A stretch of DNA of 64,000 nt from Anaerolineae bacterium (GTDB lineage Bacteria; Chloroflexota; Anaerolineae; CG2-30-64-16), in the NCBI GenBank assembly GCA_038214535.1, contig JBBQRS010000008.1, forward strand, positions 1,272 to 65,271, in the 5' to 3' direction. Below the pieces are notes generated by a model. That model worked only from the letters and a program-made list of their open reading frames with translations. It was not told the DNA's origin and made no database searches. The position numbers were made by a program, and so were the translations under genes. Numbering within the stretch: the first letter of the stretch is position 1; each line of letters begins with the position of its first letter. This document shows positions 129-64,000 of this stretch, in pieces.

Positions 129-198
129 GGAGTTGAGGCTTTAGCCGGTTTGATGCATCACTTGCTGTGTTGCAAAGACCGGCTGAAGCCTCAATTCC
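129..198. repeat. Hairpin element, family A (GAGGCTTTAGCCGG / GACGGCTTTAGCCGTT type)
   Basis: ggagttgaggctttagccggt (129-149) pairs with accggctgaagcctcaattcc (178-198). Relatives at 13518-13571, 26296-26364 and 35598-35659. Confidence 0.8.
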
Positions 199-231
199 GG
201 TACATTATCCTGCGGGCGGAGTACGTTTGAC

Positions 232-1170
232 GTGATATTGCCTGCGTTGGCGAACGAAGATGCATATGCCGCGGTTTATCGCGACGCCGAGCTCTGGTTA
301 CCGGCGCTGCGCGTGATCTGCGCGCGACACGGGCTGGACGCGGGGGCGCTGGAGATCGCGCCGCCGGGGTCGCACATCGTGTTTTGGGCCGGGCCCAGGC
401 GGCTGATCAAGTTGTTCTCGCGGTTCTGGCCCGACGACGCCGTGGCCGAGCAGACCGCGCTGGGCGCGCTGACGGCGCATCCGGGCATTCCTGTCCCGCA
501 AGTCGTCGGCGGGGGCGAGCTGGAGGGCTGGCCGTATCTGGTGTTGGAGCCGCTGCCGGGCATCCCGCTGAACCAGGCCTGGGAGCAGGTGACGCCGCGC
601 GACCGGGCGGCGGTCTGCGAGACGCTGGGCGGGGTGATGGCCGCGCTGCACGCTGTGCCCACGACCAGGCTGGACGCGATTGCGGTGGACTGGCCCGCAT
701 GGCTGGCCGAGCGGCGCGCGGGGTTTGCGGCCGCGCAGACCGCGCGCGGCGCAGCGCCGGAGTGGATCGCAGCGGCGCTGGATTTTCTTGCGGAGATGTG
801 GCCGGAGATCACGACGGGCGCGCCGGTGCTGTTGAACGCCGATATCACCGACGAGCACGTGTTGCTGGCGCGTGAAGGGGATCGCTGGCGCATGACCGGG
901 TTGATTGATTTCGGCGACGCGATGCTGGGCGACGCGCTCTATGAGTTCGCCGCGCCGGTGACCTTCATCGCCGGGCGGGACGCGGGCCTGCGGCGGGCGC
1001 TCTATCGCGGTTATGGTTGGCCCGACGCCGCGCCGGACGAGGCGCTGTCGCGGCACTTGCTGGCGATGGCGCTGCTGCACCAGTTCGCGGATTTGCCGCT
1101 CTACATCCGCACGGCGGGCGAACCGACCCCGCGCGACCTGGCGGCCCTGCAAGCAGCGTTGTGGGTGTAA
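232..1170 (+). CDS. Aminoglycoside/choline-kinase-like phosphotransferase (APH family)
   Basis: 312-aa ORF with GTG start. LLNADITDEHVLL...GLIDFGDAMLGD resembles the APH catalytic loop and DFG-like motif. Stop overlaps the next start (TAATG). Confidence 0.7.
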   Translation: MILPALANEDAYAAVYRDAELWLPALRVICARHGLDAGALEIAPPGSHIVFWAGPRRLIKLFSRFWPDDAVAEQTALGALTAHPGIPVPQVVGGGELEGWPYLVLEPLPGIPLNQAWEQVTPRDRAAVCETLGGVMAALHAVPTTRLDAIAVDWPAWLAERRAGFAAAQTARGAAPEWIAAALDFLAEMWPEITTGAPVLLNADITDEHVLLAREGDRWRMTGLIDFGDAMLGDALYEFAAPVTFIAGRDAGLRRALYRGYGWPDAAPDEALSRHLLAMALLHQFADLPLYIRTAGEPTPRDLAALQAALWV

Positions 1171-2465
1171 TGGCGGCATGGCGCGCCCGCCTGTCCGCGT
1201 TGGCTCCCCGGCGCGGCGACCTGTGGCGCAACGCGGATTTCATGCGCCTGTGGGGCGCGCAGACCATCTCGGCGCTGGGCAGCCACGTCAGCGGGCTGGC
1301 CTTGCCGCTGACGGCGGCGCTCACGCTGCGCGCCACGCCCTTCGAGATGGGCTTGCTGGCCGCGGCGAGCAAGCTGCCCGCCGTGCTGCTGGGGTTGCAG
1401 GCCGGCGTCCTGGCCGATCGTCGTCGCCGTCGTCCGTTGATGGTTGCCGCCGACCTGGGCCGCATGGCGCTGCTGGGGCTGATCCCGCTGGCGGTCGTGC
1501 TGGGGACGTTGAACATCTGGCTGTTGGTCGGGGTCGCGTTCCTGGCAGGCATCCTGACGATGATGTTCGAGGTGGCGCAGCCGGCCTACCTGCCGACGCT
1601 GCTCAACCGGGGGCAGTTGGTGGAGGGCAACGCAAAGCTGCAAATGAGCAGCTCCCTGGCGATGATCGCCGGGCCGGGGCTGGGCGGGGTGTTGGTGCAG
1701 GCGCTCACCGCGCCGGTGGCCATCCTCGCCGACGCCGTGTCGTTCGGCGGGTCGGCGTTGCTGTTAGGGCGCATCCGCCAGCTGGAGCCTGTGCCTGCGC
1801 CGTCCGCGGACGGCGCAACCAGCGTGCGGCAGGACGCGGCGGCGGGGCTGCGGCTGGTCCGTAATAACCCGATCCTGCGCGCGATCACGGCGAGCCTGGC
1901 GACCTTTTTCCTCTTCACGGCGGTGCTGGAGGCGGTTTTCCTGCTCTATTTCACCCGCGAATTGGGTGTCAGTCCGGGTATCCTGGGGTTGGGACTGGGC
2001 GTGGGCAGCGCGGGATTCCTGTTGGGGGCGCTGCTGTTGCCGCGGGCCACGCGGCGCTTTGGGCTCGGCGGCGCGATGATCCGCGGGCTGGTGATGACCG
2101 GCATCGCCGACATGATCTTCCCGCTGATCGGCCCGGGGATGTCGCCCACGCTGATTGCAGGTCTGTTGTTCGTGGATCAGTTCATTTTCGGCGTGGGCAT
2201 GGCCGTTTTCAACATCAATCAGGTGAGCTTGCGGCAGGCCGTGACGCCGCTGGAATATCAGGGACGCATGAATTCGGTGGTGACGTTCGCGACGGCATGT
2301 GGCGGGCCGGTGGGCGCGTTGTTGGGCGGGGCATTGGGCGCGACGGTGGGGCTGCGCATGGCCCTCGTCGTGGGGGCGCTGGGCGAAGCGGCGGCGGTGC
2401 TCTGGTTCATCTGGTCGCCGATCCCCGCGATCCGCGATACGCAAGAGGTTGCCGTTATGGACTGA
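1170..2465 (+). CDS. MFS transporter
   Basis: ATG at 1170 overlaps the upstream stop. Starts MAAWRARLSALAPRRGDLWRNADFMRLWGAQTISALGSHVSG, followed by about 12 hydrophobic segments. The 1017 start in the track is an out-of-gene extension. Confidence 0.8.
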   Translation: MAAWRARLSALAPRRGDLWRNADFMRLWGAQTISALGSHVSGLALPLTAALTLRATPFEMGLLAAASKLPAVLLGLQAGVLADRRRRRPLMVAADLGRMALLGLIPLAVVLGTLNIWLLVGVAFLAGILTMMFEVAQPAYLPTLLNRGQLVEGNAKLQMSSSLAMIAGPGLGGVLVQALTAPVAILADAVSFGGSALLLGRIRQLEPVPAPSADGATSVRQDAAAGLRLVRNNPILRAITASLATFFLFTAVLEAVFLLYFTRELGVSPGILGLGLGVGSAGFLLGALLLPRATRRFGLGGAMIRGLVMTGIADMIFPLIGPGMSPTLIAGLLFVDQFIFGVGMAVFNINQVSLRQAVTPLEYQGRMNSVVTFATACGGPVGALLGGALGATVGLRMALVVGALGEAAAVLWFIWSPIPAIRDTQEVAVMD

Positions 2466-2517
2466 CCTATCCATCCACATTTCCCGCGGAGTGCGCATCC
2501 TCAGATGCGTCTTTGCC

Positions 2518-2574
2518 GACAGGATTTACAGGATTTACAGGACCAGAAACCCCGCGAATCCTGTAAATCCTGTC
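2518..2574. repeat. Word palindrome (ACAGGATTT words)
   Basis: gacaggatttacaggatttacagga (2518-2542) is complementary to atcctgtaaatcctgtc (2558-2574). Confidence 0.85.
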
Positions 2575-2626
2575 TGTTCCGCGAGAGGCGCGGATTGGAA
2601 GAAGGCCGATGAAGGAGGGGAGAGCA

Positions 2627-4177
2627 ATGAAACGACCGAACCTCATACTTATCATGACCGATACGCAGGCGACGAACGTCGTGGGGTGTTATGGGCGGCC
2701 CGAATTGCGCACGCCGAACATTGACCGGCTGGCCGAGACGGGGACGCGTTTCGAGCGTGCGTATACGACCTGCCCTGTTTGCACGCCGGCCCGCGCCGGG
2801 CTGTTCACGGGCATCTATCCGCATACCTCCGGCGCGTGGACCAACAATCTGCCGTTGGGGACAAACATCCACACGATGGGCGAGTTGTTCCAGGACGGCG
2901 GCTATCACACGGGCTACGTGGGCAAGTGGCATCTGGATGGGCACGACTACTTCGGCACGGGGATTTGCCCGCCCGGCTGGGACCCGGCCTACTGGTACGA
3001 CGGGCGCAACTATCTGGATGAGCTGACGGAGGATGAGATTCGCCTGTGGCGCAACGGGCTGCGCACCTACGACGATCTGGTTGCGCACGACATTCAGCCG
3101 GAGTTCACCTGGGCGCACCGCGTCTCCGACCGCGCCGTGCGCTTCCTCGAGACGCGGGACGAAGGCCCGTTCCTGCTGGTGGTCTCCTACGATGAGCCGC
3201 ACCATCCCTTCGTCTGCCCGCCGGTGTATGTTGCGCCATTTTTAGAGTATGATTATCCGCTTGGCCCTGCCGCGTTCGATACGCTGGAGGAGAAGCCGGA
3301 GCACCAGCGCGAATGGGCCGGGACAACGAACATCACACCCAACGCAAACGGCACGGTGCGTTCGCCGATGTATCTGGGATGCAACAGCTTCGTGGACGCT
3401 GAGATCGGCCGGGTGATTGACGCCGCGCACGCCCTATCGCCCAACGACACCTATATCATTTTTACCTCCGATCACGGCGAGATGCTGGGCGCGCACCGGC
3501 TGACGGGGAAGGGCGCGGCGATGTACGACGAGATCACGCGTATCCCGCTGATCATCGAGCAGCCCCGCGGTGCCGGCGCGGGTAGCGTCATCCCGGAGCC
3601 GGCCAGCCACATTGACCTGCTGCCGACCTTCCTGGCGTGGGCCAGGCTGCCCGTCCCGCCGATCCTGGAAGGTGAGAGCGTTGCGCCGCTGCTGGGCGGC
3701 GCGGAAGCGCCGGAGCGTTGCGCCTTCATCGAGTTCAACCGGTATGAGATCGAGCATGACTCGTTCGGCGGGTTTCAGCCGGTGCGCTGTATCGTGGATG
3801 GGCGCTATAAGCTCACGATCAACCTGATGACCAGCGATGAACTGTACGACCTGGAGACGGACCCGGCGGAGGTCATCAACCTGATCGAGGCCCCGGCGTA
3901 TGCGGAAATCCGCGACGGCCTGCACGGCCGGTTGCTGGCGTGGATGTATGCGCAGCGCGACCCGTTCCGCGGGTATTACTGGGAACGGCGGCCCTGGCGC
4001 GATGAGCAGCGGCTGGCGTGGAAGGGATTGTTCCGGCCCCGGCCCGCTGATGGTTATGCGCCGCCGGTGCGCGACTATGACACCGGGCTGCCCACGCAGG
4101 GCGTCAAGGTGGAACACGGCGCGACCGGGCATCAGAAACGCCAGAAACCCGGTTTCTCCGAGAAACCGGGTTTCTAA
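2627..4177 (+). CDS. Cys-type sulfatase (arylsulfatase family)
   Basis: AGGAGG RBS before ATG 2627. N-terminus NLILIMTDTQ plus C-x-P-x-R signature CTPARAGLFTG. The last 10 codons lie in a family C hairpin. Confidence 0.9.
   Translation: MKRPNLILIMTDTQATNVVGCYGRPELRTPNIDRLAETGTRFERAYTTCPVCTPARAGLFTGIYPHTSGAWTNNLPLGTNIHTMGELFQDGGYHTGYVGKWHLDGHDYFGTGICPPGWDPAYWYDGRNYLDELTEDEIRLWRNGLRTYDDLVAHDIQPEFTWAHRVSDRAVRFLETRDEGPFLLVVSYDEPHHPFVCPPVYVAPFLEYDYPLGPAAFDTLEEKPEHQREWAGTTNITPNANGTVRSPMYLGCNSFVDAEIGRVIDAAHALSPNDTYIIFTSDHGEMLGAHRLTGKGAAMYDEITRIPLIIEQPRGAGAGSVIPEPASHIDLLPTFLAWARLPVPPILEGESVAPLLGGAEAPERCAFIEFNRYEIEHDSFGGFQPVRCIVDGRYKLTINLMTSDELYDLETDPAEVINLIEAPAYAEIRDGLHGRLLAWMYAQRDPFRGYYWERRPWRDEQRLAWKGLFRPRPADGYAPPVRDYDTGLPTQGVKVEHGATGHQKRQKPGFSEKPGF
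4143..4175. repeat. Hairpin element, family C (AGAAACCCGGTTTC...GAAACCGGGTTTCT)
   Basis: Near-perfect palindrome agaaacccggtttctccgagaaaccgggtttct. It overlaps the sulfatase C-terminus, and the TAA stop is at 4175-4177. Confidence 0.85.
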
Positions 4178-4186
4178 AGGAGTCCC

Positions 4187-5656
4187 ATGGACGAACGACC
4201 ACTGGTGCTATTGACCGGGGCGACGGGGTATATCGGGGGGCGGCTGGCCCCGCGGCTGCTCGATGCGGGCTATCGGGTGCGCTGCCTGGTGCGCGACCCG
4301 GCGCGATTGCAAGGTCGCGAGTGGGTCGAGCGCGTGGAGCTGGTGACGGGCGACGTGCTGGAGCCGGAGACGCTGCCCGCGGCGATGGCGGGCGTGTCGG
4401 CGGCGTACTATCTGATTCACAGCATGGCCGGCGGCGAGGATTTCAGCGGCCGCGACGTGCGGGCGGCGCGTAACTTCAGCCGCGCCGCCGCGAGCGCCGG
4501 GGTGGAGCGCATCATCTACCTGGGCGGGTTGGGCGATTCCGACGCGGAGCTGTCGCACCATCTTCGCTCGCGGCAGGAGACGGGCGACGCGCTGCGCGAG
4601 GCAGGCGTACCGGTTACGGAGTTCCGGGCGAGCGTGATCGTGGGTTCGGGCAGCCTGTCGTTCGAGATGATCCGCTATCTGACCGAGCGGCTGCCGGTGA
4701 TGATCTGCCCGAAGTGGGTCTATACGCACACCCAGCCGATCGGCGTGCGCAACGTCATGGAGTACCTGATCGCCGCGCTGAAAACCCCGGAGAGTGTGGG
4801 CCGGATCATCGAGATCGGCGGGGCGGACGTGGTGACCTACGGCGAGATGATGGAGACCTACGCGGAGGTGCGCGGGCTGCGCCGCGCCATGATTCCCGTG
4901 CCGGTGCTGACGCCGCGGCTGTCGTCCTACTGGGTACATCTGGTGACGCCTGCGCCCGCGGCGATTGCGCGACCGCTGATCGAGGGGCTGAAGAACGAAG
5001 TGGTGGTGCAGGACGATACGGCCCGGCGGCTCTTTCCCGACATCATCCCGATGGATTATCGCACAACCGTGGTGCTGGCATTGGCCCGCGTGGGTGCGCA
5101 CACGGTGGAAACCGCGTGGAGCGATGCGCTGGTGTCGAGCCAGGGCGACGTGCCGCCGGTGACGATGACCACCGAAGAGGGCATGGTGAGCGAGCAGCGC
5201 CAGCTTGTCGTTGCGGCCTCGCCCGAGGCCGCGTATGATGCGTTTGCCGGGCTGGGCGGCGAGCGCGGCTGGCTCTACATGAACTGGGCGTGGCGGGTGC
5301 GCGGCGCGATGGACCGGTTGATCGGCGGCGTGGGGTTGCGGCGCGGCCGGCGCGACCCCGATCACATCCGCGTGGGCGACGCGCTGGACTTCTGGCGCGT
5401 GGAGGCGGCCGAGCCGGGTCGGTTGATGCGCCTGCGCGCCGAGATGAAGGTGCCGGGCAAGGCGTGGCTCGAGTTTCAAGCGTTGCCGCACGCGGGGGGT
5501 CAGACGCTGATCATCCAGACGGCGTTCTTCGAGCCGAAGGGCCTGTCGGGGTTCTTGTACTGGTACGTGCTTTATCCGTTTCACGCGTTCATCTTCAGCG
5601 GGATGATCCGCAAGGTCGCGCAGCGCGCGGAATCGGCCACGAATTTCACGAATTGA
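4187..5656 (+). CDS. NAD(P)-binding atypical SDR (NmrA-like) with a C-terminal DUF2867-like domain
   Basis: AAGGAG RBS. Rossmann motif LLTGATGYIGGRL. The C-terminal DFWRVE...RLRAEMKVPGKAWLEF matches DUF2867 as I recall it. Confidence 0.75.
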   Translation: MDERPLVLLTGATGYIGGRLAPRLLDAGYRVRCLVRDPARLQGREWVERVELVTGDVLEPETLPAAMAGVSAAYYLIHSMAGGEDFSGRDVRAARNFSRAAASAGVERIIYLGGLGDSDAELSHHLRSRQETGDALREAGVPVTEFRASVIVGSGSLSFEMIRYLTERLPVMICPKWVYTHTQPIGVRNVMEYLIAALKTPESVGRIIEIGGADVVTYGEMMETYAEVRGLRRAMIPVPVLTPRLSSYWVHLVTPAPAAIARPLIEGLKNEVVVQDDTARRLFPDIIPMDYRTTVVLALARVGAHTVETAWSDALVSSQGDVPPVTMTTEEGMVSEQRQLVVAASPEAAYDAFAGLGGERGWLYMNWAWRVRGAMDRLIGGVGLRRGRRDPDHIRVGDALDFWRVEAAEPGRLMRLRAEMKVPGKAWLEFQALPHAGGQTLIIQTAFFEPKGLSGFLYWYVLYPFHAFIFSGMIRKVAQRAESATNFTN

Positions 5657-5663
5657 CTACGAG

Positions 5664-5767
5664 GTAGGGGCAAGGCGTTCCATCAACATAGACGCATTAC
5701 GAACGATGTTGGAAAGAACACGATACATCGGTCGCGAACAAATCGCCGAGGAACGCCTTGCCCCTAC
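5664..5767. mobile_element. MITE-like element, copy 1 (18-bp terminal inverted repeats GTAGGGGCAAGGCGTTCC)
   Basis: TIRs at 5664-5681 and 5750-5767. The interior is about 80% identical to the reverse complement of the interior of 8574-8678. Confidence 0.7.
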
Positions 5768-5787
5768 TATGAATGAAAGGAATAACA

Positions 5788-6201
5788 ATGCACTTGACGA
5801 TTCATGACGAACCGGATGAAGCGGAATGGAAGGCGATTGACCGCGGGCTGGAGGCGCACAGCGTCCAGTTCGCGCCGCCATTTGAATGGCGAAAATTGGC
5901 GATCTTTCTGCGCGACGAGGAGGGCGGCTTGCTGGGCGGGCTGTTGGGCGCGACCTATTGGGGCTGGCTGTACGTCGAGACCCTCTACGTCGCAGATGAG
6001 TTGCGCGGGCAGGATTGGGGGACCAAGCTGCTGGCGGAGGGCGAGGCGGAGGCGCTGCGCCGCGGCTGTCGCGCCGTGCATCTGGACACGATGTCCTATC
6101 AGGCGCTGCCCTTCTACGAAAAGTTCGGCTACACGGTGTGGGGCACGCTGGAAAACTTCGTCGGGGGCCACGACCGCTATTTTCTGCAGAAACAGCTTTA
6201 G
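5788..6201 (+). CDS. GNAT family N-acetyltransferase
   Basis: 137-aa version from ATG 5788 (AAGGA RBS); the track start 5773 abuts the MITE. The YVADELRGQDWGTKLL...FYEKFGY pattern is GNAT-like. Confidence 0.75.
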   Translation: MHLTIHDEPDEAEWKAIDRGLEAHSVQFAPPFEWRKLAIFLRDEEGGLLGGLLGATYWGWLYVETLYVADELRGQDWGTKLLAEGEAEALRRGCRAVHLDTMSYQALPFYEKFGYTVWGTLENFVGGHDRYFLQKQL

Positions 6202-6323
6202 CCACGAATTGCACGAATTATCATGAATTTTGAGAAGCCTATTCCCTTAGGCCTCGGCTTTCTGGTTTCACTCTGGAAACCAGATCCCTCAAATGATTCG
6301 TGGCAATTCGTGCAATTCGTGGC
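6201..6323. repeat. Composite word palindrome (CACGAATT words) with an inner hairpin
   Basis: Arms gccacgaattgcacgaattatcat (6201-6224) and atgattcgtggcaattcgtgcaattcgtggc (6293-6323). Inner stem tctggttt/aaaccaga at 6261-6284. Lies between convergent genes. Confidence 0.85.
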
Positions 6324-6330
6324 TGATGGA

Positions 6331-7410
6331 TTAGCCCAGGTTCTCGTAGAGGACGAGGCCGTCTTTGCCGGGGGCCACGAGATCGAGGCGTCCGTTGCCG
6401 GTGAGATCGGCCAGGGCGAAGAGGATGCCGCAGCCCTTGCCGACGCCGGGCGGGCCGTAGACAATCACCTCTTTGCTGAACGATTCGCCGTTCCACTTGA
6501 AGTAGTAGATGCCCACGTCTTCGAACTCGCCGGGGTCGTTCCCGTTGTGAGCGCGATAACGCTGGCCGGTGATCAGCTCCGGCGCGCCGTCGCCGTCAAT
6601 GTCGGCCCATTGCAGGTCGTGATACTGTGACTTGTAGGGGTCAATGGGGTGGCGCAGCCAGGTGCGCGCGCCGTCCGCGCCGATGCGTTGTTCCCACCAG
6701 TCGAGCCCGAAGCGGTGCGCCTGACCGACGATCAGGTCGTTCAGCCCGTCGCCGTTCACGTCCACCACCAGCACCGGCACGCTGGCGTATTCCAGATCGA
6801 AATCCCCGTGGAAGACCCATTCGCCGCTCCACGGGTCGGCGGGCGCTTCCAGCCAGCCGTGCTTGAGCACGAAATCGCCGCGCCCGTCGCCGTTGATGTC
6901 GCCGAAGCCGACCCCGTGGTCCTGCTTCTCCGCGTAGATTGTATGCGCCTCGAAGCGGCCCGTGCCGCGGCGCTGCGCGTCGGTCACCAGCTTGTAGACC
7001 ACCAGCGGGCCGTTGGGCGTGTTCGGCACGATCTCGAGCTGGCCGTCGCCGTCCACGTCCCACAGGCGCACCGTCTCGATGTTGTCCATCTTGGCGATCT
7101 CATGTTCCGGCCACTGGGCGTTGGGGTCGCCGGGGTTCTCGCGCCAGTGCAGGGCGTCGCCGAACCAGCCGCCGGTGATGAAGTCGAGCCGCCCGTTCCC
7201 GTTGACATCCATCGGGAGGGTGGAGAAGTCGTCGTAGTATTCGCCATATTCAGGAATCTGGCCGATGAAATGGCGGTTGGCGATACTGGGCGTCTCGTAC
7301 CAGTACGCGCCGGAGACGATCTCTGGCTTGCCGTCGCCGTCCACGTCGAAGACGCCGGCGGATTCGTAACGTTCGAGGGCGATGAAGTGTTTGCGGAAGC
7401 GAATTGACAT
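6331..7410 (-). CDS. FG-GAP / VCBS repeat protein
   Basis: Seven D-x-[DN]-G-[DN]-G repeats (DVDGDGKPEIVSG, DVNGNGRLDFITGG, DVDGDGQLEIV, DINGDGRGDFV, DVNGDGLNDLIVG, DIDGDGAPELITG, DLTGNGRLDLVAPG). AAGGAG RBS. Confidence 0.85.
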   Translation of the reverse strand: MSIRFRKHFIALERYESAGVFDVDGDGKPEIVSGAYWYETPSIANRHFIGQIPEYGEYYDDFSTLPMDVNGNGRLDFITGGWFGDALHWRENPGDPNAQWPEHEIAKMDNIETVRLWDVDGDGQLEIVPNTPNGPLVVYKLVTDAQRRGTGRFEAHTIYAEKQDHGVGFGDINGDGRGDFVLKHGWLEAPADPWSGEWVFHGDFDLEYASVPVLVVDVNGDGLNDLIVGQAHRFGLDWWEQRIGADGARTWLRHPIDPYKSQYHDLQWADIDGDGAPELITGQRYRAHNGNDPGEFEDVGIYYFKWNGESFSKEVIVYGPPGVGKGCGILFALADLTGNGRLDLVAPGKDGLVLYENLG

Positions 7411-7495
7411 AAGCCGAATAACTCCTTTGTGGTGTTGTATGGTTCGTGGTGCGGACGGGAGTCCGCACCACGAGCAAGACGGTCTTACGAGCGCA

Positions 7496-8551
7496 CTATG
7501 AGCCGTGGATGAGCCGGATGTAGTCGCGGGCGATACGCAGGTCTTCCAGGGCCTCGGCAGCTTCGCAGGGTGGGCGCGCCTCGCCGCGAATTGCCGCGAG
7601 GAAGTTGCTCGCCTGCTGGCGCATGGCGTGAACCCACGGCAGTTGCGGGATGACCGTTTCGGGCGCGACGTCGCCGGGGTCGCGGAAGATCTCGACCCGG
7701 CCGGGACGGTTGCAGGCCAGCGGCGCGGGCAGCTCCAGCTTGATGTAGCCCCGCTCGAAGCAGATCAGCGCCGATTCCTGCCAGTCAATTGTCGTGCGGT
7801 AAGGCGACATCTCGATAGTGCACGCGACGCCGCTCTCGCTCTGCCCGGCCAGCAGCACGCCCGACGGGTCGGCGTAGGTCACGCGGTACGGCTCGCCCAG
7901 CAGATAGCGCATCAGATTGACCTGGTGGATATAGTAGTTCACGAAGGCGACGTATTGCTTGAAGGTTTCGGCGTCCATGTCGGGCGGGGCGGGATCGCGC
8001 GGCAGGTCGGGGTAGGGCGCGGGGTCGCGGATCAGGTCGTTGAAGCCGCCGGCGATCCAGTCGCCCGCGGGCATCAGGATGCGCACGTAGGTCATGTGAC
8101 CCAGCTCGCCGGTCTCCTTCAGGCGCGCGATCTCGGCGCGGGCGACAGTGGTGGCGGGGTCGCTGCGTTTGTGATAGCCCAGCATCCACCACGCGCCGCT
8201 TTCCGCGACGGCGGACACCAGCCGCTCGCCCACCGGCACGGACGCGGCCAGCGGCTTTTCCGTGAACACGGGCGTCCCGGCCTGCAACAGTTCGGGGATC
8301 AGCACGCCGTGACGGTCGAACGGCTGGGTGGCGACGATGCCGTCCAGCGTCTCCGCGGCGAGCATCTCGGCGTGAGAGGGGTAGACGCGCGGCACGCCGT
8401 AGCGCGCGGCGACCTGCTGGCCCAGCGCCGCGCGCACTTCGGCGATGGCGACAACCTCGCAGTCGGGCAGGGCGGCGTAATTCTTCAGGTGGGCGCACTG
8501 GCCCATGCTGCCCACACCGACGAAACCGATACGCACTTTGGACTCCGGCAT
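7496..8551 (-). CDS. Gfo/Idh/MocA family oxidoreductase
   Basis: Start trimmed to MPESKVRIGFVGVGSMGQ (ATG 8551, AAGGAG RBS). The track's longer start runs into the MITE-like element. Confidence 0.85.
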   Translation of the reverse strand: MPESKVRIGFVGVGSMGQCAHLKNYAALPDCEVVAIAEVRAALGQQVAARYGVPRVYPSHAEMLAAETLDGIVATQPFDRHGVLIPELLQAGTPVFTEKPLAASVPVGERLVSAVAESGAWWMLGYHKRSDPATTVARAEIARLKETGELGHMTYVRILMPAGDWIAGGFNDLIRDPAPYPDLPRDPAPPDMDAETFKQYVAFVNYYIHQVNLMRYLLGEPYRVTYADPSGVLLAGQSESGVACTIEMSPYRTTIDWQESALICFERGYIKLELPAPLACNRPGRVEIFRDPGDVAPETVIPQLPWVHAMRQQASNFLAAIRGEARPPCEAAEALEDLRIARDYIRLIHGS

Positions 8552-8573
8552 ATGGCGCTCCTTTGCGATGAGT

Positions 8574-8678
8574 GTAGGGGCAAGGCGTTCCCCGGTGATA
8601 TGTTGCGCGACCGATGTAGCGCTTTCTTTCCAACATCGCTTGTTAAGCACGCAATTGGGAGGAACGCCTTGCCCCTAC
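8574..8678. mobile_element. MITE-like element, copy 2 (same TIRs, opposite interior orientation)
   Basis: TIRs at 8574-8591 and 8661-8678 are identical to those of copy 1. Sits 22 nt upstream of the oxidoreductase start codon. Confidence 0.7.
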
Positions 8679-8747
8679 GGCTACGATTTGTGATAAGGAT
8701 AACGGGAAGATCGGGGAAGGGCAAGTTGCGCCGCGCGGATTTTTTGC

Positions 8748-8874
8748 TCACGCGGAGGCGCGGAGACGCGGAGGATTCTTTGATTTTCGGAGAGCCTGAG
8801 TCGAGGTAAGCAGGCCAATCGCACGGCGCGCGATGATTGGCTTAATTCTTCCGCGTCTCCGCGTCTCCGCGTGA
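8748..8874. repeat. Composite word palindrome (GCGGAGACGCGGAG words) with an inner hairpin
   Basis: Arms tcacgcggaggcgcggagacgcggaggattctt and aattcttccgcgtctccgcgtctccgcgtga. Inner stem gccaatc/gattggc (8814-8841). Confidence 0.85.
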
Positions 8875-8927
8875 TTGGTGTATAATGCCGCTGAAGAACA
8901 GACAACTTTCAGAGGAGCGGAGACGCG

Positions 8928-9164
8928 ATGATTAACATCTATGACGAGAGCAACGACCAGTTATTGGGGACGATCACCGAGTCGCAACTGGTCTTCCTGA
9001 CCGGGGAGATGGAGGAGGAATCCACCACCGACCGCGACTATTACGTCAATGTTGCGACGGTGGACATGATGGAAGCGGAGGGGGGCGACAAGGAGTTGAT
9101 CGCCCTCCTGCGCAAAGCGCTGGGCAAGCGTGAGGACATGGACATCCGCTGGGAGCCGGCATAG
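8928..9164 (+). CDS. Small acidic hypothetical protein (78 aa)
   Basis: ORF with GGAG RBS and a TATAAT box at 8881-8886. No motif recognised. Confidence 0.6.
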   Translation: MINIYDESNDQLLGTITESQLVFLTGEMEEESTTDRDYYVNVATVDMMEAEGGDKELIALLRKALGKREDMDIRWEPA

Positions 9165-55102: not shown

Positions 55103-55107
55103 CGGAG

Positions 55108-55138
55108 TGCGCACGCCACGCGATGGCGTCAGATGCGC
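55108..55138. repeat. Hairpin element, family F (inverted copy)
   Basis: tgcgcacgccacgcgatggcgtcagatgcgc is close to the reverse complement of 21558-21588. Confidence 0.75.
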
Positions 55139-55224
55139 AGGGGCGTTTGGAACACGAAGACCGCGAAACGGCGCGAAGGGCGCGAAACGCGAAGGGCGCG
55201 AAGGGGAAGACCGACGATTGCTTA

Positions 55225-56443: not shown

Positions 56444-56512
56444 ATTTTGCACGCGGAGACGCGGAGGACGCGGAGATTTTTTAGCATTTCTCAGCGTCTC
56501 CGCGTGCAAAAT
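56444..56512. repeat. Word palindrome (GCGGAGACGCGGAG words) between convergent hepT and rho
   Basis: attttgcacgcggagacgcggaggacgcggag pairs with gcgtctccgcgtgcaaaat. Confidence 0.85.
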
Positions 56513-56518: not shown

Positions 56519-57640
56519 TTACAGACTGGGTTTGAGCGCGGCGAGCAGTTGGGGGTTGGTGGGGTATTTGTCGAGGAGCTGCAACAACTTGAGCATCCCC
56601 TCTTTGGGTTGATACTGGGCCAGCCCGCGCCGCAGGGTGCGCAGGCGCGCCATCTCATCGGGCGGGTAGAGCAGTTCTTCGCGGCGCGTGCCCGACGCGT
56701 TGATGTTGATCGCGGGGAAGATGCGCGCCTCGGCCAGCGCGCGGTCGAGCACGACCTCGCTGTTGCCGGTGGCCTTCAACTCCTCGAAGATCACCTGATC
56801 GAGCCGCGATTCGGTGTCTACCAGCACCGACGCCAGCACCGTGACCGAGCCGCCGCCCTCGATGTTGCGCGCCAGCCCGAAGAAACGCCGCGGCATCTCC
56901 ATCGCGCTCGCCTCGAGCCCGCCGGAGAGGCTGCGCCCGCGCCCCGGCGCGCCCAGGTTGAAGGCCCGCGCCAGCCGCGTCAGGCTATCCAGCACGACCA
57001 CCACGTCGCGGCCGCATTCCAGCTCCACGCGGATGTGCGCCAGCATCAGCTCCATCAGCGCCATGTGCTCCTGCGTGGGGCGGTCGCTGGATGAGGCGAT
57101 CACCTCCGCGCCCGCGGCCCGCCGGAAATAGGTTACTTCCTCCGGGCGCTCGTCAATCAGCAGCACGATGACGCGCGTTTCGGGGGCGATGCCCGCGATG
57201 CCGGTCGCCAGCTTGCTGAGCAGCGTGGTTTTGCCGGCCTTGGGCGGCGAGACGATCAGCCCGCGCGTGCCCTTGCCGATGGGCGCGACCAAGTCTACCG
57301 AGCGCAGCGTGATATCGGGCAGACTGCCGAAATCGAGGCGCGCGTTGGGGTCAATGGGGATCAGGTCTTCGAAGTCGGGCCGCGCGGCAAACGCCTCCGG
57401 CGTCAGCCCCGAGATGCAGGCGATATCGGTCAGCGTGAGGACGCCGTTAACCCGGCGCGTCGGGCCTTCGACCAGCGCGCCTTCCGGCAGGCCATAGTCG
57501 CGGATCAACGCCGCAGGGACGACGGGGTCGCGCGGCGTGGCCCGGAATGAGCGCGCGGGATCGAGCAACTTGCCGTCGCGCCGGCCTTCGAGCTTCAGCA
57601 CGCCTTCGGCGCGGTCCGTGGGAAGAGATGGTTTCGTCAT
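56519..57640 (-). CDS. rho: Transcription termination factor Rho (short form, 373 aa)
   Basis: Walker A PPKAGKTTLL, LIDERPEEV, DSLTRLARA, PAININASGTRREELL. The N-terminus starts at the OB/CSD-like domain. Confidence 0.9.
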   Translation of the reverse strand: MTKPSLPTDRAEGVLKLEGRRDGKLLDPARSFRATPRDPVVPAALIRDYGLPEGALVEGPTRRVNGVLTLTDIACISGLTPEAFAARPDFEDLIPIDPNARLDFGSLPDITLRSVDLVAPIGKGTRGLIVSPPKAGKTTLLSKLATGIAGIAPETRVIVLLIDERPEEVTYFRRAAGAEVIASSSDRPTQEHMALMELMLAHIRVELECGRDVVVVLDSLTRLARAFNLGAPGRGRSLSGGLEASAMEMPRRFFGLARNIEGGGSVTVLASVLVDTESRLDQVIFEELKATGNSEVVLDRALAEARIFPAININASGTRREELLYPPDEMARLRTLRRGLAQYQPKEGMLKLLQLLDKYPTNPQLLAALKPSL

Positions 57641-57688: not shown

Positions 57689-57804
57689 TTCACCACGAAG
57701 AAACGGGGAAGAAAAGTAGGCATGGGAACATGGATAGATAAGGTTCCCTTTTTGTTGTTTGCGTATGAAAAAGAATCTTCGTTTCTTCGTTCCTTCGTGG
57801 TGAA
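57689..57804. repeat. Composite word palindrome (CACGAAG/AACGAAG words) with an inner hairpin
   Basis: ttcaccacgaagaaacg pairs with cgtttcttcgttccttcgtggtgaa. Inner stem gggaac/gttccc (57724-57748). Confidence 0.85.
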
Positions 57805-57834
57805 TAAAAGTCAGGGTGAGGGTGTGCGGTATCC

Positions 57835-57868
57835 AGACCTGACAGGTTTGCGCAAACCTGTCAGGTCT
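57835..57868. repeat. Hairpin element, family B
   Basis: agacctgacaggtttgcgcaaacctgtcaggtct. Confidence 0.9.
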
Positions 57869-57879
57869 TGCGCGTAGTT

Positions 57880-57919
57880 AGAAACCCGGTTTCCGGCTTC
57901 GCCGAGAAACCGGGTTTCT
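57880..57919. repeat. Hairpin element, family C
   Basis: agaaacccggtttccggcttcgccgagaaaccgggtttct, 10 nt downstream of the patatin stop. Confidence 0.9.
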
Positions 57920-60057: not shown

Positions 60058-60134
60058 TCTCACCACGAAGGAACGAAGAAACGAAGATTCTCTAAAAAAA
60101 TTCTTCTGCGTTTCTTCGCTCCTTCGTGGTGAAT
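60058..60134. repeat. Word palindrome (CACGAAGG/AACGAAGA words) between fpg and the downstream gene
   Basis: tctcaccacgaaggaacgaagaaacgaagattct pairs with aattcttctgcgtttcttcgctccttcgtggtgaat. Confidence 0.9.
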
Positions 60135-60136
60135 CT

Positions 60137-60961
60137 TCAACGATCTATCATGAGTCCCGGTTGGCAGGCGCGGCAGAAGTTGGTGACGCGCTTTTGGCGC
60201 TTGACCTCGCTGATGGGGCCGCCGCAACGGGGGCAGGGTTCGCCGGTTTTGCCGTGTATGGCGAGGAAGTCGCGCACTTCCATCTCGATGCGCTCGCCCA
60301 CGCGGTCGCGCAGGGTGTCAATCGCCTTTTCAAGCACGGTCCACATACAGCCGTAGAGCCGCTCGCTCTCGGCCGCGCTGAGACTCGCGCGGCGACGGAA
60401 CGGGTAAATCTGCGCGCACCAGAGGATCTCGTCGGCGTAGGCGTTGCCGATACCCGCGACGAACGCCTGGTTGGTCAGCGTGCCCTTGATCTCGCCGGGG
60501 TGGCGCTTGATCCGCTCGCGGAACACGTCAAGAGTCAGCGTGGGGTCGTCGGCGTCCGGCCCCAGTTCGGCGAAAGCGGGCACGGCGTTCAGGTCGTCCG
60601 TGACGTAGATCTTCCCCATGTCCATCGGGTCGTTATAGCGCAGCTCGGCGCCGTCGGCCAGCCGCAGCACCAGCGCGTCACGCGTACGGTCTTTGGCGAG
60701 GGGCGCGCCATAACGCAGCCGCCCCGCCAGCATCGGGTTGATGACGATGGTCGGCCCGTCCTCCAGCGCCAGCAGCAGGAACTTGCCGCGCCGCGCGACG
60801 CCGGTGAAGCGCTTGCCGGTCAATAGACCTGACAGGTTTCCCAAACCTGTCAGGTCTCGCGTGATCAACGGCCGGCGCACGTCCACCGCGGCGATCTCGG
60901 CCCCCGCCAGCCGCGGCGCCAGCACCTCGCGAATGATCTCCAGATCGGGCAGTTCAGGCAT
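60137..60961 (-). CDS. mutM: Formamidopyrimidine-DNA glycosylase (Fpg/MutM family)
   Basis: Start trimmed to MPELPDLEI (catalytic N-terminal Pro). RRGKFLLL. C-terminal zinc finger CPRCGGPI...FCRACQ. The track's N-terminal extension is translated repeat. Confidence 0.88.
   Translation of the reverse strand: MPELPDLEIIREVLAPRLAGAEIAAVDVRRPLITRDLTGLGNLSGLLTGKRFTGVARRGKFLLLALEDGPTIVINPMLAGRLRYGAPLAKDRTRDALVLRLADGAELRYNDPMDMGKIYVTDDLNAVPAFAELGPDADDPTLTLDVFRERIKRHPGEIKGTLTNQAFVAGIGNAYADEILWCAQIYPFRRRASLSAAESERLYGCMWTVLEKAIDTLRDRVGERIEMEVRDFLAIHGKTGEPCPRCGGPISEVKRQKRVTNFCRACQPGLMIDR
60825..60857. repeat. Family B hairpin copy inside the fpg CDS, in frame
   Basis: agacctgacaggtttcccaaacctgtcaggtct. 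Its reverse complement encodes DLTGLGNLSGL in ...ITRDLTGLGNLSGLLTGKRF... Confidence 0.9.
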
Positions 60962-60979
60962 GGCGGTGCTCCAGTTTTT

Positions 60980-61337
60980 ACCACGAAGGAACGAAGTAAG
61001 GATACAAGGAAATAAGGAAACAGGGAAACAAGTAGACAAGGAGGCAAGGAGACAGGTAGACAAGGAGACAAGCTGAGGAGTGAGCACGCTACGAGGTGGC
61101 GTCAGATGCGAACGATGGGGTAGAGGCGCTGAGGCTTAGTCGTTCGCGTAGGGGTGTGGTCGCCACGCCCTGGCCGCGGCGCGCTTTCTTCCCAGACCTG
61201 ACAGGTTTCGCAAACCTGTCAGGTCTTGCGCGTCCAGCCCTCACCCTAACCCTGTCCCAAAGGGCGAGGGAACCAGACCCCCTCTTCCCCTCTACTTGCC
61301 TACTTGTTTACTTGTCTCCTTGTCTCCTTGCCTACTG
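60980..61337. repeat. Intergenic region built almost entirely of repeats
   Basis: Word tract 60980-61072, family F 61082-61111, family B 61194-61226, family D 61237-61270, and an inverted word tract 61290-61337 that contains the stop of the lipoprotein gene. Confidence 0.85.
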
Positions 61338-62024
61338 TCCTGGGACGCAGGCGTCGGCGGCGACGGTGAAGGCGCGTTCGCCTTCCGCCAGCGGGATGCC
61401 GTTTGCCCCATAGGCAGTGACGACCCAGGTGTAGGAGCGGCCCGGCGATAGCACGGGAGCCGTGACCTCGGTCTGCGATAGCGTCTTGTCGAGCAGGAGT
61501 TCCGTGGTTCCGGCGTCAATCACCATGACGCGATAGCCGTCCGTAGGTTTGGCTTCGACGAACGGCTCCCAGCGCAACACGGGGACGGCGTTCGTCAGGC
61601 AATCGGCGGCAGGCTCGACCAGCGTCAGGGTGCGCTCCAGCGGGACGACGAGATCGGTGATGCTCTGCCCCGGTGCGAGGGTCACCGCGGGCCAGCCGCC
61701 TTGATCCTCTTCGCCATCGGGAAAGACGCCGATCACGCTGAAATCGCCCACGGGTGGGTGATCCATCACGAAGATGCCGTCCGGCCCAGTGGTCGTCTCG
61801 GCCACGGTCATGCCGGCGGGGTCGGTCTGCCAGCCGGGGGTGCGCAGCGACACGCGTGCGTCGGCTACGGGCTGTCCGCCATAGGTGGCGACGCCCGACA
61901 GGCGCGCGCCGGTCGCGGCGGGTATCTGACCGGGCATCGGCACGCACGCACCGAGGAGCAGCGCAACGATCAGAAGGCCGGCGAACGCAGTTGTCCTCGT
62001 GGTGAGGTGATCCATGGTGTGCAT
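61332..62024 (-). CDS. Lipoprotein with a carboxypeptidase-regulatory-like/Ig-like beta domain (function unknown)
   Basis: Lipobox LLLGAC after a hydrophobic N-terminus. Beta-rich sequence. Confidence 0.65.
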   Translation of the reverse strand: MHTMDHLTTRTTAFAGLLIVALLLGACVPMPGQIPAATGARLSGVATYGGQPVADARVSLRTPGWQTDPAGMTVAETTTGPDGIFVMDHPPVGDFSVIGVFPDGEEDQGGWPAVTLAPGQSITDLVVPLERTLTLVEPAADCLTNAVPVLRWEPFVEAKPTDGYRVMVIDAGTTELLLDKTLSQTEVTAPVLSPGRSYTWVVTAYGANGIPLAEGERAFTVAADACVPGQ

Positions 62025-62035
62025 AGTCTCCCTGT

Positions 62036-64000
62036 CTACTTGTCTCCTTCGATGAGACGCAACGAGCGGACCGCTGCGACGGCATCCTCGCGAGTGTTGA
62101 CGCCGAGTTTGGTGTAAATGCGGGTGGTGTGGTTGCGGACCGTGAAGTATGAAATATCGAGCAGCGCGGCGATCTCTTTGTTGGTCAGCTTTCCCGCCAG
62201 CAGTTCCAGCACTTCCAGCTCGCGTTCCGTCAGCGGGTCTATCAGGGGCAGGTCGGGTTGGCGTGCTGCGGCGGCGCGGGCGACCTCCGCCAGCATTTCA
62301 CGGGCAGCTTCGGCCTGCCGGCCCAGGCGCGCCAGTTCATAGAGCATGGTTCTTACGTCGGCCCCGCCCTCGATGAAGCAACGGACGTAGCCGCGCGGGG
62401 CCGCCGGAGCCAATGCTGCCTCCAGCACGTCCAGCGCCTGCTGCCGAGAGCCGCGCCGCCACAACATGCGCGCCAGCAGGACGCCGCCTTCGATCTGCAC
62501 GTACACCTGGCGTTCTCCGCCGGCATGGCGCAAGACCTCGCGCACCATTTCGATCATCCGTTTAAGGTCGGCGTCTGTCCCGACCGCCAGACCGATTTGC
62601 GCCCGAATCAGCAGTATGTCATAGGCCCGCGGGGTCTCAAGGCCCAGGGCCGAGGTTTCGAGCCAACGCCGTGCCGCAGCCTGATCGCCGCGCGCCAGCG
62701 CGGGGAAAAGCGCCAGCGCGTCCGCTGCTGCGGCCAGGGTCGAGCCGCCGGCGCGGGCGGCCAATTCGCGCACCCGCCTGACGACCTCATCCGCGCGCGC
62801 AAGCGCCCTGCGCTCGATATGGATGCTAACCAGCGGAAACGCGCAGGCCATCGCGGCTTCCAATTGCCCCTCATGCGCACCGTTGAGCCCCGCAGAGAAA
62901 TAGGTGACCGCTTTGTCCAGGTTGTTCATGGCATAGTACGCTTGCGCGATCCCGTGGCGCGCCCATAGAATACTGCTGGTCATCACGCAGGTTTCGGCCA
63001 GTTGCAGGTAGCGGTACGCCGCCGGGAGTAAGAGCGATGGCGAAGCATCGCGGCGGTAAAGGGTGACCAGCGAGTAATGCAGGCGCGTCAGGAAGGGTGT
63101 GGGGCGCGGCCCGGCCTGGTCGCTGAGCTCACGAAAGGTGCGCAGCGCTTCGGCCATCTGCCCCAATTCGTGCAGCCGCAGCAGTTTCTGGTTGATGACA
63201 AACGCATGGAGCCAGGAATTGGGCGCGATGTTTGCCAACGCCTCGTCTGCCGCCTCGATCTGCTGTGCCGGCGTGAGACTGGCATACAGGTTCGAGCTAC
63301 GCATGGCGGCGATTTGCCCGCGCCAGTAATTGACGGCGAAGTCGTCTTCGCCGGGCTCCCATTGCGTCAGCAGCGCCTCGGCGCGCGTCACCAGCGGCGG
63401 CACGCGGTCATGGCGGTAGTTCCAGTTGAGCGTCCAGCATTGCGCAATGAGCAAACCGGGGCGCGCTTCGATCAGGTCGCGCGACAACAGCGCCAGCCAG
63501 TCGGTCAGCTCGGCGAACGATTCGGCTTCCTGAACGTCCGCGAGGCGATGTTCGATGAGGCGGGCGGCTGCGGGCGCGTCATCGCCCGCCAGATAATGCT
63601 GCAATGCCTCCTCGATTTCGCCTTCTTGCGCGAGCCGGGCGGCTGCGCGCCGGTGCAGCGCGGCCACATCTGACTGCGCCATGGATTGCTCCAGGCGATA
63701 GCGTAACAGTTCGCCGAAGATATAGTGATAGCGATACCGGCGGCGGTGCCGGTCCAACGGCGTCACGAACACGTTGCGCCGTTCCAGGTCTTCCAGCATG
63801 GCCTGATACGTGCCGGGTCGGGCTTCGCCGAAAATCGCGGCGCACTTCTCCGCGGTCAATTCTGAGAAGACGGAAGTCTCCAGGAGGATGCGCTGGATGT
63901 GATCCGGTTGGAGGGTGAGCGCCTGTTCGGTCAAATAGTCGGCCACATGGCGATCTACGTGTGTCTCGAAGTCATGCACGTAGGCCGCCGGGTCATCGGC
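62036..64000 (-). CDS. LuxR/MalT-type (LAL) transcriptional regulator; N-terminus lies outside the window
   Basis: C-terminal LuxR HTH LTERELEVLELLAGKLTNKEIAALLDISYFTVRNHTTRIYTKLGV with TPR-like helical repeats upstream. The frame stays open to nt 64000. Confidence 0.8.
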   Translation of the reverse strand, partial: ADDPAAYVHDFETHVDRHVADYLTEQALTLQPDHIQRILLETSVFSELTAEKCAAIFGEARPGTYQAMLEDLERRNVFVTPLDRHRRRYRYHYIFGELLRYRLEQSMAQSDVAALHRRAAARLAQEGEIEEALQHYLAGDDAPAAARLIEHRLADVQEAESFAELTDWLALLSRDLIEARPGLLIAQCWTLNWNYRHDRVPPLVTRAEALLTQWEPGEDDFAVNYWRGQIAAMRSSNLYASLTPAQQIEAADEALANIAPNSWLHAFVINQKLLRLHELGQMAEALRTFRELSDQAGPRPTPFLTRLHYSLVTLYRRDASPSLLLPAAYRYLQLAETCVMTSSILWARHGIAQAYYAMNNLDKAVTYFSAGLNGAHEGQLEAAMACAFPLVSIHIERRALARADEVVRRVRELAARAGGSTLAAAADALALFPALARGDQAAARRWLETSALGLETPRAYDILLIRAQIGLAVGTDADLKRMIEMVREVLRHAGGERQVYVQIEGGVLLARMLWRRGSRQQALDVLEAALAPAAPRGYVRCFIEGGADVRTMLYELARLGRQAEAAREMLAEVARAAAARQPDLPLIDPLTERELEVLELLAGKLTNKEIAALLDISYFTVRNHTTRIYTKLGVNTREDAVAAVRSLRLIEGDK

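Follow-up and report, generated by a model that had tools for sequence, protein, structure and literature searches.

The 64-kb stretch of an Anaerolineae bacterium contig analysed here (the window; 64% GC) raises the question of what the hairpin-forming repeats between its genes are and how they arose. In the reading which we favour, with a probability of roughly 0.7, the window belongs to an uncultured Chloroflexota genome with several co-resident palindromic repeat families of the REP (repetitive extragenic palindromic) type, of which families B and C are REPIN-like doublets (REPIN, REP doublet forming a hairpin) of REP-associated tyrosine transposase (RAYT) systems. Genes were called using codon bias, which gave 58 genes and 48 gaps, the gaps accounting for 13.8% of the sequence. 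According to Pfam, the genes are ordinary housekeeping and metabolic ones (suf operon, diol dehydratase, MurF-Alr, fpg, rho and a restriction-modification (R-M) fusion). The nearest named homologues of SufS, with 76-78% identity, belong to metagenome-assembled genomes (MAGs) of uncultured Chloroflexota.

A first-pass annotation of the window had described several families of hairpins and of palindromes built from short words. Its motifs were checked with regular expressions, inverted-repeat listing, Tandem Repeats Finder (TRF) and folding of every gap. All families were recovered in place or directly beside it, and inverted-repeat listing and TRF bore out the word arrays with their inverted partners. 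A perfect inverted repeat of ≥ 11 bp is present in 23 of the 45 gaps of ≥ 40 nt, compared to a mean of 0.65 (maximum 2) in length-matched coding sequence and 0.15 in shuffled gaps. The enrichment is real and not due to chance. The assertion that nearly every gap holds an element was too strong, since about half of them do, and more if imperfect hairpins are counted. At least eight hairpin families occur together in the window, with roughly one element per 2 kb. Shuffles and coding controls yield essentially no such repeats and identical elements recur in independent assemblies, isolate genomes among them; hence, the probability that the pattern is a product of chance or an assembly artefact is practically nil. 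The annotation had also considered a code specific to this lineage, which does not hold: at least 120 reference-genome stretches, belonging to at least four phyla, carry the exact B hairpin, and the word palindromes are also found in other Chloroflexota and in metagenome contigs. The elements are new representatives of the REP/REPIN-RAYT and heptamer-repeat hairpin kinds, at unusually high density and diversity in a little-studied phylum.

Families B and C and RAYT-type genes

Family B forms five hairpins in the window, at 39894-39927, 42221-42254 (5 nt past a stop codon), 57835-57868, 60825-60857 and 61194-61226. All ten 15-nt arms are perfect, with 0 expected in shuffles. Family C has three copies, the canonical 33-nt form AGAAACCCGGTTTCT-CCG-AGAAACCGGGTTTCT at 4143-4175, one at 34319-34359 (9 nt past the sufS stop codon) and one at 57880-57919; the first-pass positions were correct for the first and last copy, whereas the second starts at 34319 and not at 34317. 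The hairpins of both families measure 33-41 nt, and the 33-nt unit consists of two inverted 15-nt arms which are 3-4 nt apart. Each arm is itself palindromic (6 + 3 + 6 nt, consensus approximately ARACCYNNNRGGTYT), with the quasi-palindromes AGACCT-GAC-AGGTTT in B and GAAACC-C-GGTTTC in C. Because the arms are self-palindromic, the unit combines two small hairpins, as REPINs do.

The C copy at 34319-34359 carries a mini-hairpin of 11-13 nt in its loop. The same 11-nt loop mini-hairpin (CGGCGAAGCCG) is present in the copy at 57880-57919, the two being in opposite orientations, and the copy at 4143 has a plain 3-nt loop. The copies with the mini-hairpin are a derived subfamily with a nested insertion.

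Open reading frames (ORFs) within 1.5 kb of B were clustered in 129 loci chosen solely for their B content. One recurrent RAYT-like family was obtained, and tblastn raised its count to five of the 129 loci; other recurrent neighbours (ABC-transporter ATPases, large families) were judged to be due to chance. The RAYT-like protein has ~200 amino acids (AA), with invariant NHFH (HUH) and YIH(N/Q)NP (Tyr) motifs in the alignment. The Pfam model Y1_Tnp matched the protein of locus L074 with 27.6 bits (cut-off 23) and the other B-locus proteins more weakly. The sole family match in NCBIfam was REP_Tyr_transpos, with 54.7 and 70.7 bits, which is under the cut-off of 80. At 5/5 of these loci, B or a near variant lies 15-90 nt from each available gene end, and at three a further B copy stands in frame inside the gene. 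An in-frame REP within the gene, together with REPs flanking it, is known for TnpA_Y1 subclass 2.4 (Bertels group 4), which has NH[IFV]H and YIxNNP motifs and ~194 AA; for subclass 2.6, “atypical secondary structures” without the GT[AG]G foot were described (PMC6006769). Cyanobacteria, Chlorobia and Caldilineae commonly have RAYTs of group 4 (PMC5581495).

A metagenome scan using the alignment of the B-locus proteins gave 508 relatives. Among the best 80, perfect short-loop hairpins were found in or beside the gene in 52/80 and on both sides in 22/66, and the hairpin density is 1.77/kb in the flanks of the RAYT genes versus 0.12/kb in the rest of the same loci. The hairpin sequence shifts with the RAYT protein lineage while the design is kept: arms are self-complementary in 40/78 cases (~1 in shuffles), and compensatory arm variants occur at L159, L160 and L173. 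Family C arms are carried at the RAYT loci L195 and L191. Genes of the RAYT type with such hairpins on either side occur in Bacteroidota, in MAGs of Chloroflexota and in metagenomes. B was found beside a RAYT-type gene at L001, L002, L048, L070, L074, L151, L224 and L225. Of these, L224 (Thermoflexales MAG) and L225 (Anaerolineae MAG) have a RAYT-like gene flanked by perfect B hairpins, with one inside. L151 is a metagenome contig with 67% GC and a B-flanked RAYT-like gene, whose product has > 4,000 homologues, named “REP element-mobilizing transposase RayT” by JGI and in part “transposase [Anaerolineae/Thermoflexales bacterium]” by NCBI. From the hairpins at RAYT genes and the match to the published subclass 2.4/group 4, we conclude that B and C are most probably REP/REPIN-type elements of RAYT systems, the subclass being judged from motifs alone.

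Some further features of the RAYT-like loci were recorded. In L224 and L225, the B-flanked gene lies within a type I R-M operon, between hsdM and hsdS, and more B copies are located in or beside hsdM and hsdR. In the RAYT-like genes (L001, L048, L070, L151, L224, L225), a further copy of the hairpin that flanks the gene is often found in frame between the sequences for the HUH and Tyr motifs, and a DLTG...-type peptide is present in 32/120 homologues.

For the distribution of B, the exact hairpin was searched in one genome per species. Among the matches listed, carriers belong to the Chloroflexota (Anaerolineales, Caldilineaceae, Ardenticatenaceae, Thermoflexales), Bacteroidota (Flavobacterium, Saprospiraceae, Cyclobacterium and others), Gammaproteobacteria (Thioploca, Marithrix, Halobeggiatoa, Methylococcaceae) and Rhodothermota (Rhodothermales, Balneolaceae). 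These loci have a GC content of 29-69%, unrelated flanks and a freely variable loop of 3-5 nt, whereas the stem is identical by construction of the search. B-carrying genomes also bear hairpins of the same design, e.g., AGATTGGTCCAATCT-loop-AGATTGGACCAATCT and AGACTCCCGGAGTCT-loop-AGACTCCGGGAGTCT, and word palindromes of other heptamers. Families C and F and the word motifs are essentially absent from the 120 B loci listed, and a pan-phylum distribution can therefore be stated for B only. A full-text literature search with the B sequence returned only unrelated eukaryotic primer matches. In viral contigs, 0 matches were found for C, nine stretches for B and eight for A, which does not point to a phage origin. 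One of the IMG/VR contigs (L127) has three tandem B hairpins at 12948-13082 with a period of 51 nt and the same 18-nt spacer after each; this array is a duplication of the hairpin plus its flank.

Word palindromes, GTAG-tagged elements and families D and F

The arms of the word palindromes consist of tandem words, for which TRF gave periods of 7, 8 and 9 as well as compound ones of 14 and 16, and each arm pairs with its inverted counterpart across a core of 10-72 nt. In the larger palindromes, the outer termini are conserved (TTCACCACGAAG...CTTCGTGGTGAA) and the cores, of 37-72 nt, are unique; the 15-nt terminus CACCACGAAGRAACG of the CACGAAG palindromes has six occurrences, with 0 expected in shuffles. 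Words of the type ACAGGATTT form palindromes at 2518-2574 and 12231-12321 (three words, 27-bp perfect arms, 1 nt past a stop codon) and, together with CCACGAAT, the arms of a composite at 26239-26434 around a family A hairpin (26295-26364). The convergent gap at 6200-6324 is occupied from stop codon to stop codon by CACGAATTG words with a 67-nt core, and GCGGAGAC words were found in the divergent gap at 8748-8874 (71-nt core) and at 56444-56512, 6 nt past the rho stop codon. GATAGCT/GATGGCT heptamers fill another convergent gap (16194-16283), overlapping one stop codon and ending 3 nt from the other. Further palindromes are built from GAATTAN heptamers (34757-34830), GGGGAWC / CTGATAC heptamers (36120-36251) and GACAAGGAAAC (51035-51087, overlapping a stop codon). 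The CACCACGAAG words form a palindrome directly past the fpg stop codon (60058-60134) and a second one with a 72-nt core (57689-57804), which is joined by the B and C copies at 57835-57868 and 57880-57919 to give a cluster at 57689-57919. CACGGATG/GCCAACACGGAT words, which are also present in the related contig L141, form an array with a partial inverted arm at 24382-24540.

Other arrays are one-armed (21607, 23950, 45888). The first of them (TCCTTGTCTCCTTATT, 3.3 copies) follows a family F hairpin (21558-21590) within 21558-21661 on the plus strand. The second, also on the plus strand (23950-23990; CACGAAGG / CACGAAGA / GACAAGG), fills the gap between the diol-dehydratase genes up to the start codon. 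Here, the large and medium subunits of the diol/glycerol dehydratase are encoded in one fused ORF (21711-23945), which the small-subunit gene follows after a 49-nt gap consisting wholly of repeat words.

Several elements combine words with the small hairpins of families D and F. Family D has three exact copies and one reverse-complement variant, contains a G.U pair and is in the sense orientation in all four copies. On the plus strand, the region 20847-20973 consists of a D hairpin (20847-20882), a GATAGCT word run and a T-tract hairpin (20929-20973), and the region 41309-41418 of a GATAGCT word run and two tandem D hairpins (41337-41372, 41383-41418). Family F is a bulged hairpin with three copies, one at 21558 (+), its reverse complement (55104-55140), which stands between GATGGCG and CGCGAAGGG words at 55064-55205, and a ~80% variant at 61082. 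The latter (~61082-61112) belongs to a nested composite upstream of fpg (60972-61343), in which long word arms enclose the F-like hairpin, B (61194-61226) and the D reverse complement (61237-61270).

Family A has four copies, namely 128-199 (GGAGTTGAGGCTTTAGCCGGT ... inverted arm), 13511-13578 (GTAGTGACGGCTTTAGCCGTT ...), the above-mentioned 26295-26364 and 35598-35659 (GTCGTGACGGCTTCAGCCGTTG ...). A GTAG...CTAC double foot is present in A subtype b (GTAGTGACGGCTTTAGCCGT...CTAC; 13518, GTAGTGAC...), in an imperfect hairpin GTAGTGCG...CGCACTAC in the convergent gap at 49804-49874 and in the GTAGGGGC element. This last family, GTAGGGGCAAGGCGTTCC...GGAACGCCTTGCCCCTAC, had been overlooked by the first-pass annotation. 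It has two copies in opposite orientation, at 5664-5767 (68-nt spacer) and 8574-8678 (core reversed), with inverted 18-nt arms and a spacer of 68-69 nt. The double foot was described for REPs of subclass 2.4 (PMC6006769), and GTAG REPs of Chloroflexi occur nested in palindromes and inside ORFs (PMC3733652). Hairpins with a GGCTTTAGCC core and differing outer stems are present on unrelated contigs. Family A and the GTAGGGGC element, which is 104 nt long, resemble classical REP/REPINs with a GTAG tag.

Orthologous gaps were compared with four related contigs, L140 (SufS 78% identical), L141 (~90% nucleotide identity), L142 and L143. The first-pass annotation had suggested such a comparison for presence or absence; both presence/absence and sequence turnover were seen. 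In L140, the gaps that follow sufS, the second nifU and the FeS-assembly gene hold hairpins too, which belong to other families (among them a 33-nt AGAAGTCGGGTTTCT doublet and word palindromes of GTAGACAAG, GTCAGGN and GTACTGC), and one compared gap is occupied in L140 only. Past the fpg stop codon, the window, L141 and L142 all have the CACCACGAAG palindrome; number and spelling of its words differ and the register of its arms is sometimes lost, whereas the terminus is retained. Where the window has the nested composite of 370 nt upstream of fpg, L141 has a simple palindrome of 70 nt, and the cluster at 57689-57919 is replaced there by a CACGGATG palindrome and two extra genes. These comparisons indicate that the word palindromes are passed on at orthologous sites, undergo remodelling in place and act as hosts for nested small hairpins. 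The same words occur at 3-6 separate loci of the window, and at non-orthologous loci in relatives.

Gene ends, coding regions and competing explanations

The placement relative to gene ends, which the first-pass annotation had suggested to check, is biased: an element lies within 15 nt of the stop codon at 18/58 gene 3’ ends and equally close to the gene at 4/54 5’ ends. Since elements also occur in divergent gaps (8574, 8748, 48912), they are not confined to 3’ ends. That most elements lack a U-tract is correct as well, as none of 20 stop-adjacent elements has ≥ 5 T in its 8-nt tail. A terminator consensus scan of positions 1-20000 gave nine sites versus 12.8 expected, i.e., no enrichment. 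Intrinsic terminators were rejected because of the missing U-tracts and the lack of site enrichment; the T-tract hairpins at 20929-20973 and 43222-43270 are exceptions and members of no repeat family. The placement would fit a role in termination or mRNA stability and equally a simple bias of insertion or tolerance. A secondary role at mRNA 3’ ends (decay, Rho access, translation termination) is possible. The rho gene reported earlier is indeed present (56519-57640, minus strand; NF006886 with 375.6 bits, cut-off 315). Its product is short (373 AA), is without the usual N-terminal extension (the match to the Rho model begins at about position 52) and also gives a partial match to the “short form” Rho paralogue model.

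The elements had been presented as intergenic. This applies to most of them; however, the copies at 4143, 39894, 53168 and 60825 are located in genes or overlap them. In fpg (60137-60961, minus strand), the B hairpin at 60825-60857 is read as the peptide RDLTGLGNLSGL. L141 has the identical 33 nt in its fpg (9876-9908), and L142 and L143 (76-80% protein identity) have DNA of the same length in which the left arm matches at 13/15 positions and the right arm does not match. A simple in-frame insertion was ruled out because the fpg orthologues are equal in length. Same-length, half-matching DNA in L142 and L143 points to a replacement of existing sequence, and B seems to have been written over existing codons. 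The fusion protein of serine hydroxymethyltransferase (SHMT, GlyA) and GcvT (51746-55102, plus strand; ~1,110 AA) is conserved in L140 (13463-16807; 74% identity), and in both genomes its in-frame linker is a word palindrome (53168-53295 in the window, ~14925-14990 in L140) composed of different words. The final 11 codons of the sulfatase ORF (2654-4177) are the C hairpin at 4143-4175, and the B hairpin at 39894-39927 holds the TGA stop codon of the methylase-endonuclease (R-M) fusion gene (37541-39901); repeats thus define or extend protein C-termini.

According to the REP/REPIN explanation, the B and C hairpins would fold in single-stranded DNA at replication forks, and a RAYT encoded elsewhere in the genome would cut and rejoin them, spreading them in trans; recognition, cutting and rejoining of single-stranded DNA by Y1 enzymes are assumed because they are established for IS200/IS605 and TnpA_REP. 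The hairpins would persist where they are tolerated, mostly a few bases past stop codons and inside other hairpins. The word palindromes would be altered in place as words are gained, lost or exchanged, and the small hairpins would use them as landing pads. After transcription, the elements would put stable hairpins without U-tract at mRNA 3’ ends.

Several observations weigh against this explanation. A 5’ GT[AG]G foot tetranucleotide was not found in B (starting with AGAC) or C (starting with AGAA). RAYT-type genes with B or C hairpins, which the first-pass annotation had suggested to look for, exist in other genomes, whereas tblastn and Pfam scans found no RAYT-like ORF in the window, which thus does not contain the cognate gene of this genome. 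No partner protein was identified for D or F, and the link between word palindromes and RAYTs comes from a single locus (L187). All five B copies of the window are perfect, with no decayed relatives, and B is identical in the window and L141 while the surrounding DNA is ~89% identical; this perfection fits selection or homogenisation better than neutral selfish DNA. The copy in fpg involves no change in length, unlike what simple insertion predicts, and the same gaps of relatives hold hairpins of different sequence. The REP/REPIN explanation leaves unexplained the conversion-like origin of the fpg copy, the copying of words between loci and the invariance of the B stem across phyla, given that its RAYT-like proteins are only 40-62% identical. 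A broader proposal goes further: B would be a pan-phylum invariant 33-nt REP doublet, spread also by templated conversion over half-sites, as with the 33 nt replaced in fpg, and kept perfect by selection or RAYT-linked homogenisation, the word arms would be by-products or substrates of the same single-stranded DNA machinery, and Chloroflexota, Bacteroidota, large sulfur bacteria and methanotrophs would share, through horizontal exchange, one system of stop-adjacent hairpins. In this full form, we consider it improbable.

The hairpins may instead be mainly RNA elements selected by the host, i.e., terminators without U-tract acting with or alongside Rho, barriers to 3’ exonucleases or signals for processing and stability, with their repetitiveness being incidental. 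The preference for 3’ ends, the convergent gaps filled from stop to stop (6200-6324, 16194-16283), the different hairpins in the same gaps of relatives, the G.U pair and 4/4 sense copies of D, the palindromic SHMT-GcvT linker with differing words in two genomes and the perfect conservation of B all agree with this. However, a purely structural role would need no identical stem, and that of B is the same in four phyla over 29-69% GC. Elements are also present in divergent gaps, in coding regions (60825, 53168, 4143) and flanking or inside RAYT genes, and shared occupancy of gaps between relatives is weak evidence because about half of all gaps are occupied. We consider a mainly RNA-based role rather unlikely, though not negligible. 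Far less probable are classical miniature inverted-repeat transposable elements (MITEs), which would have arisen from DDE-type insertion sequences by deletion and would carry terminal inverted repeats and target-site duplications. The conserved outer termini and unique cores of the larger palindromes resemble such elements, but this reading was rejected because the CACCACGAAG copies of the window, L141 and L142 are not flanked by any consistent target-site duplication. In addition, Pfam scans of the window found no transposase gene, parent insertion sequence or DDE transposase, the cores are mutually unrelated, and B and C have just 33 nt and are tied to a Y1 and not a DDE transposase. Of the co-resident mobile families of REP or MITE type that the first-pass annotation had suggested, the REP part is supported for B and C, which flank RAYT-type genes elsewhere, and is plausible for A and GTAGGGGC.

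For the word palindromes, an origin without any tie to RAYTs comes closer to even odds, but stays below them. Short words would slip during replication, and repair templated by the hairpin, or template switching, would keep the arms alike. The same was proposed for P6b of the Nostoc trnL intron, whose heptamer-repeat stems on 7-nt motifs show indels of repeat units and insertions of side hairpins (PMC4476775). The fpg-downstream palindrome, with retained terminus, varying words and arms sometimes out of register, and the one-armed arrays at 21607, 23950 and 45888 are in line with such a process. Against it, words shared by 3-6 loci of the window and by non-orthologous loci of relatives require copying from locus to locus, the larger elements mostly have spacers of 67-72 nt like those of the GTAG-tagged GTAGGGGC REPIN copies, and at L187 three palindromes with arms of ACGTTTN words around one AAACCTCTAAGGTTT unit flank a RAYT gene. 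The connection of the word palindromes to the RAYT machinery is only suggestive.

A few other features of the window were noted. The Rfam scan gave 0 matches at the gathering score; at E ≤ 1, only spurious matches to miRNA precursors and one to CRISPR-DR (E = 0.38) were obtained, on long hairpins. A tRNA-His predicted by ARAGORN (41740-41814) is probably a false positive, because it lies inside a methyltransferase ORF (41454-42215) and has no tRNA match in Rfam. Two perfect σ70 consensus promoters (TTGACA, 16 nt, TATAAT; 12/12 matches) are located at 17946-17973 and 19666-19693 on the minus strand, both in similar ~70-nt regions upstream of two neighbouring genes of ~500 AA (16284-17765, 18059-19597), for which no Pfam or NCBIfam match was found.

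Relation to known repeat systems and significance

REP/REPIN-RAYT systems (TnpA_Y1 subclasses 2.4 and 2.6 of Quentin et al. 2018; Bertels groups 4 and 5) share with the elements described here short, locally dense and mostly extragenic palindromes, inverted doublets that fold into a single long hairpin, single-copy genes of the RAYT type with these hairpins on either side (here in other genomes) and an occurrence in Bacteroidota, Cyanobacteria and Caldilineae-type Chloroflexota. Family A and GTAGGGGC have the GTAG...CTAC double foot, and the geometry of GTAGGGGC is that of a Pseudomonas REPIN. In contrast, B and C lack the GTAG/GTGG foot, their 15-nt units are separated by 3-4 nt instead of the ~70 nt of Pseudomonas REPINs, and the B stem is the same across phyla, whereas proteobacterial REPs vary between species.

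In 2008, Elhai et al. reportedly described small dispersed repeats (SDR) of Nostoc nested in tandem heptamer repeats. The word palindromes are similar to the cyanobacterial heptamer hairpins (short tandemly repeated repetitive sequences, STRR; Nostoc trnL P6b; PMC4476775) in having stems of tandem 7-nt words that vary in length by whole words, small hairpins inserted centrally in larger ones and several families per genome. The likeness is architectural only; the host is a member of the Chloroflexota with 64% GC, the words have 7-9 nt and other sequences, and the elements lie directly past stop codons and in one case in an ORF. The TAACTGA heptamer repeats of Beggiatoaceae, Cyanobacteria and Bacteroidetes (MacGregor 2015, PMC4679880) also are intergenic tandem arrays with a patchy distribution over the same unusual phyla as B, and some reach the start codon like the array at 23950-23990; however, they are direct repeats located 5’ of genes with one inverted example, while the arrays of the window are mostly arm-paired and 3’. 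Rickettsia palindromic elements and REPs in ORFs (PMC3733652) show a comparable in-frame tolerance (fpg, SHMT-GcvT linker, RAYT gene), but the former are insertions of 100-150 bp that lengthen the protein, whereas B in fpg swaps codons at constant length. Intrinsic terminators are GC-containing hairpins right after stop codons, too; the stems of the window are, with 15-29 bp, far longer, belong to repeat families and have no U-tract (0/20).

To our knowledge, work on REPIN-RAYT systems has dealt almost entirely with Proteobacteria, in which inheritance is taken to be vertical and each system to be specific to its species. The B stem, which is shared by four phyla with transposases of 40-60% identity, would be a concrete case for conservation or exchange of REPs across phyla, and the B copy in fpg a case for the entry of REPs into coding regions without a change in protein length. 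The stop-adjacent hairpins without U-tract raise the question of how mRNA 3’ ends are shaped in Chloroflexota, whose termination signals are barely known. On the practical side, such repeats cause breaks in metagenome assemblies, give rise to spurious small ORFs and to false calls of tRNAs or miRNA-like genes, and can mislead terminator predictors. The interest of the window rests on the pan-phylum invariance of B and on the events in coding regions.

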